A DNA stretch of 64,000 bases, from the NCBI GenBank assembly GCA_965198225.1, contig CBDAOY010000004.1:64001-128000 (forward strand), written 5' to 3'. The position numbers and the translations under genes are program-made. The DNA comes from Terriglobia bacterium. Its GTDB lineage: Bacteria > Acidobacteriota > Terriglobia > 20CM-2-55-15. Below the pieces are notes generated by a model. It worked only from the letters and a program-made list of their open reading frames with translations, was not told the DNA's origin and ran no database searches. Numbering within the stretch: position 1 is the stretch's first letter; the number at the start of each line of letters is the position of its first letter. Of this stretch, positions 27,469 to 31,103 are shown piece by piece.

Positions 27469-27701
27469 GGGATCCCCCGTTCCCGAGCAGCCTAGCACAA
27501 TGCGGCGCGGTAAGCGCCTGAACGTACCCCGCGACGACGGCAGGAGGTCTCTGGCGAAGAAGTGCGTGATGGATGGACTCTCTCGTTTCACTACAGGGCA
27601 GTACTCGGAGAATCTACCCGTGGGGTGCATGCTCGGCTACGTCCTCGACGGCGATGTGAAGTACGTGGCTTTGACCAGGCTCCAAGTACTCGAAGAGGGT
27701 C

Positions 27702-27900
27702 GGGGTCCGAGTAGCAATGGAACGAAAACCTTGTCTTTTCGTACCGACCCGTGGGCAAGTAGAGATCCCTAATTCATCTCGCGGGTTTCTGAGGGCGCGG
27801 ATCTCACCGCGTTGCACCGCCTTGGTCCGGCCGAAGTAATCGCGCCCGTTCAGGGTGATGTGCTCGCGCACCAATGGGAAAGACGCGCGATGTCCTTGTC
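27702..27900 (-). mobile_element. Tn3-family remnant (terminal IR and degenerate tnpA C-terminus)
   Basis: GGGG-starting IR at 27702; PLVREHITLNG...GEIRALRNP resembles the Tn3 TnpA C-terminus. Confidence 0.6.
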
Positions 27901-28145
27901 CCGGATCACGTGGCCCTCGGCGCGTCGCGGGTCGCGTTGGAGCGACGAGAGATAATTCGCTAGTATCTCTTGTGAATACACCTCGACTGCATGTCACGGA
28001 AGGGCGTTAGGGCGCGAAAAGCCGAACGAACCCTGAGGATTATCTCTCGTTGGACCCCCCGATGGCCTCCCCCACACTTCATCCGAAAACACTACAAGGC
28101 CCATCTCGCCGACTCAAGCCAGTTTCCTCTGGACTCCTGTGTCAA

Positions 28146-28420
28146 GTGAACACACGTCTCCTGTCTTGGTTCTTCGACTGTTGTTTTCAGCCGCACTGAT
28201 CTGAGCTTCGCCGTGAGTGGCGGATCGACTGCATCCGTATCTCCGGCCTCTGCGTTGGAACGGTCCTGTTCCGGGCCATGATGAATATTCGCGCGTGGGG
28301 AGCCATCCACTGACACGGCCTCTGGGGGCCACGGAAAGTGACGGCATTGCCCCAGGCCGGCCGACCGGTTCGCCATCACGCGGAAGTCCGTGCAGCCGGC
28401 TGAGATTCTGGGCCGCTATC
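28146..28420 (-). ncRNA. Candidate seek/bridge RNA in the 3' non-coding region
   Basis: Position typical of IS1111 elements; contains short matches to the left flank and both element ends. Confidence 0.6.
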
Positions 28421-28423
28421 GGG

Positions 28424-29458
28424 TCATGCGGCGCGGTAGTCGGCCTGGTAATCCGAGCCGCGTTTCCATACCGCCCATACCCGTCGTGCCAGCTTGTTGG
28501 CCAGAGCCACGGTGGCCTTGTTGTATCCGCGCTGTTGCTGAAGCCGCAGGCCCCACTGCTGGAGAGAGGATGGCGTGATCGTGGGTCGGTGCGCCGACCA
28601 CAGGACGGATCGCGCCCCGTGGATCAGCAGCATCCGCAGATAACAGTCGCCCCGCTTACTGATCCGGCCCAGCCTTCGCCTGTTGCCGCTGGAATGCTCC
28701 CGCGGTGTCAGTCCCAGATAGCTGGCAAAGTGACGGGAAGAGGGGAACCGTTCCACATTCCCCACAAAACCCACCATCGCTGTGGCGGTCAGTAATCCGA
28801 TGCCGGGAATCGAACGCAGACGTGCAACCGCCGGTGTCTGCTTCGCCAAGGCTTCCAGCTGCTTCTCGACCGAGCGGATACGGCCTTCCAGTTCCCGTAT
28901 CTCGGTGCACATCTCACTGAAGACAGCACGCAATGCGTCCGGGATCTCCAGGTCGGCATCTTCGATCAGTCCCATCACTCCCGGCACTAGATGCTGTGCC
29001 CCCACCGGGATGATGAAACCAAACTCTCGGAGCAGTCCCCGAACCGTGTTGATTCGTGCGGTCCGTGTCGCCATCCAGCCCGACCGAATCCGGTGCAGTG
29101 CAGTCAGCTGTTGCTGCGCCACCGTCTTGACCGGAACCGGCCGGATTTCGCTGTTGCGAATCGCCTCGAGCAACCCCTTCACATCCGTGCGGTCGGTCTT
29201 GTTCCGCTGCACGTAGGGCCGAACGTACTGGGGCGAGATCAGAATTACCTCGTGCCCCAGCTTGCCAATCTCCCGTGCCCAATAGTGCGACGAACCGCAG
29301 GCTTCCATCACCACTCTGGACGGCGGCTGATTGACGAAGCACTTCAGAAGCTTCGACCGACTCAATCGATACCTCTTCTCGACATGTCCGGGACGGCCTG
29401 AAATCCCAATCTCGAAAACATTCTTTGCCAGATCCACTGCAATCGTCCTATCCTTCAT
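28424..29458 (-). CDS. IS110/IS1111 recombinase (DEDD + Tnp domain)
   Basis: AVDLAK, VMEACG, NKTDRTD, SIPGIG and YLGLTPREHSSG...GRISKRGD; uninterrupted 344 aa. Confidence 0.95.
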   Translation of the reverse strand: MKDRTIAVDLAKNVFEIGISGRPGHVEKRYRLSRSKLLKCFVNQPPSRVVMEACGSSHYWAREIGKLGHEVILISPQYVRPYVQRNKTDRTDVKGLLEAIRNSEIRPVPVKTVAQQQLTALHRIRSGWMATRTARINTVRGLLREFGFIIPVGAQHLVPGVMGLIEDADLEIPDALRAVFSEMCTEIRELEGRIRSVEKQLEALAKQTPAVARLRSIPGIGLLTATAMVGFVGNVERFPSSRHFASYLGLTPREHSSGNRRRLGRISKRGDCYLRMLLIHGARSVLWSAHRPTITPSSLQQWGLRLQQQRGYNKATVALANKLARRVWAVWKRGSDYQADYRAA

Positions 29459-29651
29459 CTCGGACTCCTTCCTGTTAACACGGTCACGTGTTTCGCCCGC
29501 ACCATGCGAGGCTCCTTTGACTTTGGCACTTTCATGCCGACTAAGTCACAAGGAGGAGTCCATCTCATCACTGACAGTGCCCACAAAACTGCTTGCTACC
29601 TTGAATACGCACATGGGAGAGTATGCGAAACGGGTTTACTCCTAAGGAACC

Positions 29652-31103
29652 GTGCAACACTCCCCCATCATGGTAGCTGTCGTAATCAGTGTCAGTCTCG
29701 CGGCACTCTGTGTGCCAGTCCACGCGCAGGATGACCAGGCATTAGCCGCCATGCGCACCCGAGCCGAGACGGGCGCCGCAGCCGCGCAGTTCAACCTCGG
29801 GAGTATGTACGCCAACGGGGAAGGCGTTCCACAAGATGCCGCCGAAGCCGTCCGCTGGTACCGCCAAGCCGCCGAACAGGGCCACGCGGAAGCGCAGTCT
29901 GCTCTTGGCGAAATGTACTCCTTCGGGCGGGGCGTCCCACAGGATGCCGCCGAAGCCGTCCGTTGGTACCGCCAAGCCGCCGAACAGGGCCACGCGGAAG
30001 CGCAGTCTAACCTCGGGACCATGTACGCCACCGGGCGGGGCGTCCCACAAGATGCCGCCGAAGCCATCCGCAGGTTCCGCCAAGCCGCCGAGCAAGGCCA
30101 CGTGCCCGCGCAGTTCAACCTCGGGACCATGTACGCCACCGGGCGGGGCGTCCCACAGGATGCCGCCGAAGCCGCCCGTTGGTTCCGCCAAGCCGCCGAA
30201 CAGGGCCACGCGGAAGCGCAGTTCAAGCTCGGGTTCATGTACGATTTCGGGCGGGGCGTCCCGCAGGATGCCGCCGAAGCCGTTCGCTGGTACCGCCAAG
30301 CCGCCGAACAGGGCCACGCGGCAGAAGCGCGTAAATGGACCGTAGAGGAAGCTCAGTTCAACCTCGGGAGTATGTACGCCAGCGGAGAGGGCGTCCCACA
30401 GGATGCCGCCGAAGCCGTTCGCTGGTACCGCCAAGCCGCCGAACGCGGCTACGCCCGCGCACAGCTTAACCTCGGGAACATGTACTCCTACGCGGAGGGC
30501 GTCCCACGGGACAACGTCGTGGCGTACATGTGGCTCACTCTCGCGGCCTCACGGCTGACCGGAGAGGATCGCGCGCAGGCGGTGCAATCCCGCACCCGCG
30601 TGGCCGCTCAGATGACGCCCGCCGCCCTCAGCGAGGCGCAACGGCTGGCACAGGACTGGCAGCCAGATGTCGCAGCACTTGTGGCCGCGGTCCATGTGCA
30701 AGTCGATTGTGCGGACTGGGACACATTTGGTTTCTTTAGGGCCGGCAAGATTTCCGACGTGATGCGGTGTTTGCAGACGGGTGCCGACCCGAATGCGCGG
30801 GACGAAGAGGGCTGGCCGGCCCTGCATCTGGCGGCGAGTGTCAACGCCGATCCCGGCGTGATCGTGGCCTTGCTCAATGCCGGAGCCGACCTGCACGCGC
30901 GGGAGCCGGAGGGCGGGACGCCCCTGCATGGGGCGGCGCGTTACAACGCCAATCCCGGCGTGATCGTGCCCCTGCTCGACGCCGGAGCCGACCCGAAGGC
31001 GCGGGTCGCTACCGGGGAGACGCCTTGGGATTTGGCGCAAGAGAACGACTCCCTGGAGGGAACCGATGCGTTGCAGCAGCTGAACGATGGGCGTTTTCAA
31101 TGA
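29652..31103 (+). CDS. Secreted Sel1-repeat + ankyrin-repeat protein
   Basis: Signal peptide; ~7 Sel1 units (AQFNLG.MY..G.GVPQDAAEAVRWYRQAAEQG, 108-bp DNA repeats); 3 ankyrin units at the C-terminus. Confidence 0.93.
   Translation: MQHSPIMVAVVISVSLAALCVPVHAQDDQALAAMRTRAETGAAAAQFNLGSMYANGEGVPQDAAEAVRWYRQAAEQGHAEAQSALGEMYSFGRGVPQDAAEAVRWYRQAAEQGHAEAQSNLGTMYATGRGVPQDAAEAIRRFRQAAEQGHVPAQFNLGTMYATGRGVPQDAAEAARWFRQAAEQGHAEAQFKLGFMYDFGRGVPQDAAEAVRWYRQAAEQGHAAEARKWTVEEAQFNLGSMYASGEGVPQDAAEAVRWYRQAAERGYARAQLNLGNMYSYAEGVPRDNVVAYMWLTLAASRLTGEDRAQAVQSRTRVAAQMTPAALSEAQRLAQDWQPDVAALVAAVHVQVDCADWDTFGFFRAGKISDVMRCLQTGADPNARDEEGWPALHLAASVNADPGVIVALLNAGADLHAREPEGGTPLHGAARYNANPGVIVPLLDAGADPKARVATGETPWDLAQENDSLEGTDALQQLNDGRFQ

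Follow-up and report, generated by a model that had tools for sequence, protein, structure and literature searches.

In the window that we analysed (the 64,000 nucleotides (nt) at positions 64,001 to 128,000 of contig CBDAOY010000004.1, from the Terriglobia bacterium assembly GCA_965198225.1), the minus strand carries at positions 28129-29570 what is, in our judgement with little doubt, a member of the IS1111 branch within the IS110 family of insertion sequences, with a DEDD/Ser recombinase gene and, 3' of it, a guide RNA of the seekRNA or bridge type whose two target guides can be assigned. An IS6-family element supplies the target of the lineage, namely its terminal repeat, GGGCACTGTCAG followed by AGGAAACTGG. 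Because the right end is without three bases that are found at all related right junctions, we think it somewhat probable that this particular copy is immobile in cis, although the protein and RNA that it encodes may yet work in trans. The account as a whole, in which identification and guide assignment are joined with the less certain claim of immobility, seems to us likely. An earlier reading of the same DNA, made from the letters alone (the original prediction), had described an intact IS1111-type recombinase with guide segments in its 3' non-coding RNA at 28123-29576; that general reading is borne out by patches of the RNA that covary with insertion sites in relatives, whereas the limits had to be redrawn.

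The element is 1442 base pairs (bp) long (TGATGAGA...GGAGTCCAG) and single-copy in its genome. Its limits rest on homology to relatives, which in 60 related genomes always runs from window position 29570 to 28128, and on an uninterrupted copy of the flanking repeat; as the left flank and the right end both finish in CAG, the terminal CAG of the element could equally be left flank, a 3-nt ambiguity in the boundary. The recombinase gene (28424-29458, minus strand) is, as originally predicted, an uninterrupted open reading frame (ORF), of 344 amino acids, that matches PF01548 (DEDD_Tnp_IS110; E = 4.2e-10) and PF02371 (E = 9.4e-28) and that scores 326.8 bits against a cut-off of 140 for NF033542, "IS110 family RNA-guided transposase", with the alignment covering positions 1-342 of 343. 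The residues D9, E52, D89 and D92 are candidates for the catalytic ones, assigned by position rather than by a structural alignment, and the motif reads GLTPREHSSG, with S257-G258. An alignment of 18 proteins, the most distant at 36% identity, shows no variation at D9, E52 and D89 or at G249, P252 and G258 of the motif, and at least 90% conservation of D92. The closest named relative is an ISPa25-family transposase, with 47.7% identity over 99% of the length, and the C-terminal motif is the GL-P----S(t)G motif of PMC11187229.

Non-coding DNA amounts to 295 nt downstream of the gene (28129-28423) as against 112 nt upstream. The left terminal extension, TGATGAGA (29563-29570, minus strand), places 8 nt outside the inverted repeat and has the same form, TGATG(A/G)(G/T)A, in relatives. 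The 9-bp sub-terminal inverted repeats, TGGACTCCT on the left (29554-29562, minus strand) and AGGAGTCCA on the right (28130-28138, minus strand), and an outward-facing, -35-like TTGACA that is conserved in relatives (28140-28145, minus strand) are all confirmed, in line with the original prediction. The right repeat is followed only by G (28129), where relatives have GATA.

The case for the guides rests on comparison with relatives, whose non-coding regions align as a conserved scaffold with two hypervariable patches. Matches were present in 16 of the 60 related genomes, 14 of them among the 33 genomes of the same family; with the non-coding region as query against 400 genomes of the class, it was found in 12 of these 33, and elsewhere there were three marginal matches only. 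A pattern parse of 43 copies gave 15 distinct patch pairs (four rows failed, and two of these were read by eye). In the relatives, the reverse complement of the 5' patch is the right flank, starting from its first or second base (top-strand examples of 8-9 nt are GGGCTGCTA in G002, CGGACGTTG in G024, GGACATGTG in G003, GAGGCGTCA in G022, GGAGATCTG in G020 and CAGGACCTG in G016), and the 3' patch repeats the final 4-6 bases of the left flank and then continues with CGG, which covers the first 2-3 bases of the right flank. Top-strand guides, of which 11 were compared, had a longest exact run that averaged 7.9 nt with the guide's own right flank and 3.26 nt with those of others; for 10 bottom-strand guides, the corresponding values for left flanks were 4.3 and 1.76 nt. 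Not one of 100,000 random pairings reached the observed sum, for either guide. The same two patch positions hold target matches in an ISPa25-family element with flanks GACCTTGAG and CGACTTGTTAG, and again in an element whose flanks equal the ISKpn4 target except for one base (the published targets for this comparison are those of Table 1 in PMC13604230).

In the copy under study, the top-strand guide is UCACUUUCCG (28332-28341, minus strand), the last 8 nt of which are unpaired. The right flank predicted from it is the reverse complement, CGGAAAGTGA, which matches 7 of 10 positions of the actual flank, AGGAAACTGG. The bottom-strand guide is UGUCAGUGGA (28306-28315, minus strand), in which UGUCAG equals the left flank and UGG lies over the first bases of the right flank; it matches its left flank over 6 nt and then 1 of the next 2 positions, and the flanks of other elements over 3 nt at most. 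The imperfect fit of the top-strand guide suggests that the element sits in a near-cognate site; near-cognate sites are also occupied in relatives, for example by several G003 copies. Both guides fall in unpaired stretches of the conserved stem-loop scaffold, although the first two bases of the 5' patch may pair with the last two of the 3' patch (alignment columns 83-84 with 121-122).

The site into which the element has inserted is the left end of an IS6-family element. The left flank (29571-29582, minus strand) consists of the first 12 nt of its left terminal repeat, GGGCACTGTCAG, and the right flank (28077-28128, minus strand) is the rest of that end, AGGAAACTGGCTTGAG...GGATGAAG. The IS6-family element in the window is a relic whose transposase gene breaks off after six bases, at 28077. 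To the right of the insertion, 52 nt are found at one other place in the genome; the same 52 nt make up, in relatives, the left end of an IS6-family element that is complete, with a 233-residue ORF (NF033587, 190.7 bits with a cut-off of 125) and a terminal repeat that reads GGCA(C/T)TGTCAGA(A/G)(G/A)AAAC.GGCTTGAG. Moreover, several public contigs, from four runs, track the window to 28131 and then read ACAATGCCCC..., and the uninterrupted repeat that they contain is, in the orientation of the element, GGGGCATTGT-CAGAGGAAACTGG. Thus the empty site is GGGCACTGTCAG-AGGAAACTGG and the right boundary of the element falls after ...GGAGTCCAG; the uninterrupted repeat fits a simple insertion of the element, with the 3-nt ambiguity. 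(Two early boundary models, one with a TG core and a right flank starting TGGCT and one with a TAC deletion, were given up when the uninterrupted repeat turned up as loose ends at 28131.) Of the same IS6-family left end there are two relics in this genome (G000), namely 28077-28128 plus 29571-29582 of the window and C2:55545-55673; the second retains 27 codons, fused in frame to an unrelated ORF of 400 residues. A full copy of that IS6-family element was not found in the genome, in which other IS6-type genes are only 45-48% identical.

Searches for other sites that the guides might address gave the following. A left-flank query for an empty site in the same genus had no match in three of three genomes. 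The sequence TTTCAA-CGGAAAGTGA occurs in four copies inside a transposase-like ORF of G000 (C5:816897, C6:489942, C8:203163 and C9:17039), all of them unoccupied; these sites fit all 10 positions of the top-strand guide, but chance alone should give some dozen occurrences of any 10-mer in a genome this large. One further position, C9:42139, reads TGTCAG-AGTAAAGTGA and does not belong to an IS6 end. Copies of the lineage were also sought in metagenome contigs, where the two-guide pattern had no matches, and a single-guide 20-mer had one, which is without similarity to the element and was set aside as chance.

The scaffold that presents the guides was derived with RNAalifold from a 17-sequence alignment of non-coding regions. 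From 5' to 3', the consensus has an outer helix (GCUGC/GCAGU), a helix 2 (UGAUGR/YCAUCA), a small hairpin, a stem P1 (GCGCGGGG/CCCCGCGC) with a short extension, a UGGCC/GGCCG hairpin between the patches, a second hairpin domain and an unpaired GGAGAUACGGA. Across the 17 sequences, 96.3% of the 728 cells of the 43-pair consensus are paired, and double-sided changes occur in 8 of the 43 pairs, as compared with 2.2 +/- 1.2 in shuffles (none of 500 as high) and at most 4 in slid controls. In the copy under study, the structured region closed by GCUGC/GCAGU spans 169 nt (28228-28396; this and the features that follow are on the minus strand), about as large as the long seekRNAs that have been published (145-172 nt), and helix 2 encloses 100 nt of it; short seekRNAs are given as 70-100 nt. 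Helix 2 has the arms UGAUGG (28373-28378), identical to the first bases of the left end, and UCAUCA (28279-28284). The arms of P1 are GCCUGGGG (28350-28357) and CCCCACGC (28293-28300), with one compensated U-A pair here and one C-C mismatch; this mismatch and a small hairpin that is one base short are the blemishes of the scaffold in this copy. Between the guides lies the UGGCC-loop-GGCCG hairpin (28316-28331), then, beyond the 3' arms, the second hairpin domain (GGCCC GGAAC ... GUUCC ... GAGGCC; 28245-28277) and an unpaired multiloop segment, AGAUACGG (28235-28242), equal to AGATA, the canonical right terminus, joined to CGG, the usual first bases of the flank. An Rfam scan of 27500-30200, with E up to 1, returned no match.

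Helix 2 itself is supported by compensatory change. At columns 50 and 145, 8 sequences have a G-C pair, 6 an A-U pair and 3 a G-U pair, and the ISPa25-family element has the arms UCAUGG/CCAUGA although its left end still reads TGATGG, which argues that the intramolecular helix is the conserved feature. P1 closes a loop in which the two guides flank the small GGCC hairpin; in the mechanism that we propose, the 5' guide (28332-28341) would pair with the top strand in the right half of the target, and the 3' guide (28306-28315) would pair with the bottom strand in the left half and the first 2-3 bases of the right half. The second domain follows and then the unpaired AGAUACGG, a repeat of the canonical junction of right end and flank.

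Whether this copy can still move turns on its right end. The 41 rows with a right end represent 36 distinct junctions, and the 35 that belong to relatives, among them L097, whose non-coding region is the closest (78%), all end in CAGATA; this copy alone ends in CAGAGG. Its right terminus is therefore three bases (ATA) shorter than in all relatives, and its right extension is 1 nt (G) instead of 4 (GATA). The original prediction had called the recombinase potentially active. An alternative in this vein is that the copy is fully active and that the shorter right end is a variant tolerated in its lineage or arose by a shifted strand exchange; there is no damage to the ORF, its catalytic residues, the two inverted repeats, the left end or either guide, the flanks still fit the guides on both sides, as published work requires for excision, and the CAG shared by left flank and right end leaves the boundary ambiguous by 3 nt. 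We nevertheless regard full activity as possible but doubtful, given that ATA is present at every related junction, that the RNA retains a AGAUACGG which fits the canonical junction and not this copy's own, that P1 has its C-C mismatch and the small hairpin is one base short, that the genome holds one copy of this element as against four of a sister element, and that joining the ends, as in the circular intermediate of the IS1111 group, where a promoter forms at the junction, would place TTGACA 14 nt from the -10-like TGAGAT of the left end here as compared with 17 nt in relatives (a count made from the sequence). Excision is reported in PMC11187229 to depend on the RNA as well as on the two flanks, and nothing is said there of shortened ends. 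Thus, of the claim of potential activity, the intactness of ORF, left end, repeats and guides stands, and activity itself is put in doubt by the right terminus.

An assembly or sequencing error, with a true element that is canonical, would also account for the missing ATA. The public contigs do not span the right junction of the element (those of run X1 did not cover 28156-28283); yet the loss of three bases lies in a non-repetitive stretch and is not a homopolymer slip, and the surrounding sequence is otherwise colinear with relatives, and we think an error very unlikely.

The three short strings on which the original prediction had built its guides are all present: CACTGACA at 28308-28315 and 29569-29576, CCTCTGG at 28319-28325 and 28126-28132, and TGATGA at 28279-28284 with its complement at 29565-29570. 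However, in 2000 shuffles of the non-coding region, words shared with the two junction windows reached at least 8 nt in 18%, at least 7 nt in 57% and at least 6 nt in 98%. As matches this short are within chance, only comparison with relatives tells which of them counts. By that comparison CACTGACA (in RNA sense, UGUCAGUG) is indeed part of a target guide, the bottom-strand one, lying in an unpaired stretch whose homologous patch covaries with left flanks. The last two bases of CACTGACA equal the first two of the element, which we take as incidental; in relatives the guide runs on into the right flank (CGG) and not into the left end. The proposal that CCTCTGG is a donor guide did not survive: the string belongs to the GGCC hairpin that separates the guides, where it takes up the loop and 3' arm, and this loop varies in relatives (ctgg, ttttg, tcttg, ttag, tcac) while their right ends all read ...CCAGATA, which marks the match as chance. 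Similarly, TGATGA is not a simple guide, since in the RNA it is UCAUCA, the 3' arm of helix 2, a covarying stem with a double change at one pair in six sequences; the original prediction had itself named matches that fall in paired stems as evidence against it, and this one does. What it had missed are the top-strand guide (28332-28341) and the segment AGAUACGG (28235-28242). That all guide-like matches are chance, and the non-coding region only a structured 3' untranslated region or an end-binding region that plays no part in the choice of target, might be argued from the chance level of those strings taken alone and from the lack of an Rfam family for the region, but it is exceedingly improbable when two patches covary with flanks across 10-11 guide types and are positioned as are the experimentally defined guides of the ISKpn4/ISPa25 group.

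Several points weigh against our account. The covariation sample comes from one bacterial family, and its sequences are kin, with several guide types that have similar targets, so that the permutation figures overstate independence, even though the pattern is obvious on inspection. In this copy, the top-strand guide has a longest run with its own flank of 5 nt, compared with the family mean of 7.9, a moderate fit. In the 60 related genomes, a search with up to 2 mismatches for the perfect cognate target, TGTCAGYGGAAAGTGA, found only near matches, in numbers about those of a reversed-pattern control. Folded as a single sequence, the RNA of this copy is no stabler than shuffles (z = -0.17). That the guide RNA is produced and bound by the recombinase we infer from sequence; as regards its transcription and processing, none of the 24 listed public runs is on record as RNA. 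The loss of ATA, finally, is seen in one assembly, with the right junction of the element left uncovered by the public contigs, and the effect of a 3-bp shorter end on movement, hence immobility, is likewise something that we infer from the sequence.

We also considered whether the long RNA of this IS1111 clade may read the donor as well as the target, an idea that we hold tentatively. For most members of the family, AGAUACGG is identical to the right end and the start of the flank taken together. This third segment reads AGAUACGAG in the G022 lineage, where the flank starts CGAGG, and AUAUACGAAU in ISPa25- and ISKpn4-type elements, which have right ends ...CCATATA and flanks or published targets that start CGAC and CGAAT; put otherwise, a right end ATATA and a flank CGA go with AUAUACGA(AU) in place of AGAUACGG, in few independent changes. 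The segment thus goes with the junctions AGATA-CGG in the Terriglobia family, AGATA-CGAG in one Terriglobia lineage, and ATATA-CGA and ATATA-CGAAT in the ISPa25- and ISKpn4-type elements. With so few events, this covariation with right terminus and flank is suggestive. Durrant et al. 2024 (PMC11208160) note that many IS1111 orthologues have possible donor-binding nucleotides in a multiloop. At the right junction, the multiloop segment repeats five bases of the right terminus and the first three to five of the right flank, and it changes with them in three lineages. At the left end, the arms of helix 2, being a copy and the complement of the first bases of that end, could open and pair with both strands, and helix 2 may in this way have a second role. 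In each of the three lineages inspected, its 5' arm is a copy of the first bases of the left end, and in an ISKpn4-type element the matching region has UACAG, the complement of a differing left end, CTGTA. (A covariation between helix-2 column 145 and left-end position 6 was tried and rejected: 9 of 10 types were compatible, but only two lineages were informative, and they disagreed.) If the idea is right, end recognition in IS1111 elements would also be RNA-guided, and the 15 or more natural guide variants of these soil bacteria would form a ready-made rule set.

The sister element, 72% identical and present in four copies in the same genome, has limits of exactly TGATGGG...GGAGTCCAGATA, between GCATTACC and CGGCT, without duplication (5 + 5 empty sites). 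Its copies (L002-L005: C5:838646-840044, C5:744857-746255, C5:608366-609764 and C4:355419-356817 of G000) all lie at GC(A/C)TTACC-CGG(G)CT within two other repeat families of 7 and 8 copies, which are mostly unoccupied; in one of these families, occupied copies have TTACC and unoccupied ones TTGCC. Among the relatives, several lineages insert into variants of one repeat of about 35 bp, GTCC(G/T)(A/G)(G/C)AA.AT.AT.T.T-C(A)GGAC(G)TTGA(G/C)AAT (loci L014, L027, L100, L101 and L109-L111 in G005 and G024; L010, L024, L035 and L106-L108 in G024; L013 in G021; L019 in G016), and guide changes at this repeat follow single-base differences such as TTTAT versus TTTCT. Some relatives are truncated or interrupted, such as L028 (G021:C21:461819-462168) and L098 (G027:C4). 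The flank of L028 starts GGCAGG, where its own RNA segment AGAUACGGC and its guide predict CGGCAGG, and it may also have lost a base at the right junction.

Around the element, the left neighbour (29652-31103, plus strand) encodes a 483-residue protein with seven Sel1 repeats and ankyrin repeats, and a minus-strand promoter-like sequence, CTGACA-17-CATGAT (29667-29695), is aimed into the element, so that read-through transcription is conceivable. On the other side, a 127-residue ORF (27614-27997, minus strand) is without a Pfam match. In three of four public runs, the summed contig depth over 27900-28091 is several hundred to about 2200, as compared with about 10-20 over the element; this segment has many variant letters and looks like part of another abundant repeat.

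Nothing here alters what is known of the class, and the series of retargeted guides among the relatives is the most useful aspect of the analysis: for a class of recombinase that is now used in genome engineering, it contributes guide RNAs that have been retargeted in nature, as a well-resolved series and from a phylum that is under-studied. For annotation, an alignment of a few relatives is enough for both guides to be recognised in the sequence of such an element. A caution is that an intact gene and an intact guide do not imply an active copy.

Two other elements of the IS1111 family, IS4321 and IS5075, insert at a fixed point in the terminal inverted repeat of Tn21-family transposons. The present element likewise lies inside the repeat of another transposable element, here the left repeat of an IS6-family element. 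With the IS1111 elements for which seekRNAs have been described (ISEc11, ISKpn4, ISPa11, ISPst6 and ISPa25; Siddiquee et al. 2024, PMC11187229), it has in common a recombinase of about 340 amino acids, sub-terminal inverted repeats, a long 3' non-coding region, an outward -35 at the right end and the lack of a target duplication. The order of the guides, with the top-strand guide 5' of the bottom-strand guide, and their overlap at the insertion point are as published there for ISEc11, ISPa11 and ISKpn4, and the ends, TGATG..ATGGACTCC on the left and GGAGTCCA.ATA on the right, are nearly those of the ISPa25-family element. It differs from the named seekRNA elements in a protein identity of only 45-48%, in its host, a Terriglobia bacterium, in its IS6-family target, in a left extension of 8 nt where that source gives 7, and, in this copy, in a right extension of 1 nt, not 4. 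IS621 and ISCro4, of the IS110 branch (PMC11208160; PDB 8wt6 and 9t56), also have a DEDD/Ser recombinase, and their chains are the only solved relatives of ours, matched through its C-terminal domain (E = 1.9e-13 for 8wt6 and 4.1e-14 for 9t56); the possible donor-side segment in the multiloop is as PMC11208160 notes for many IS1111 orthologues. Unlike IS621 and ISCro4, however, in which the RNA lies 5' of the gene, the present element has its RNA 3' of the gene, with the guide order reversed and long inverted repeats, and the duplicated core dinucleotide of those elements is not seen at the two junctions here.

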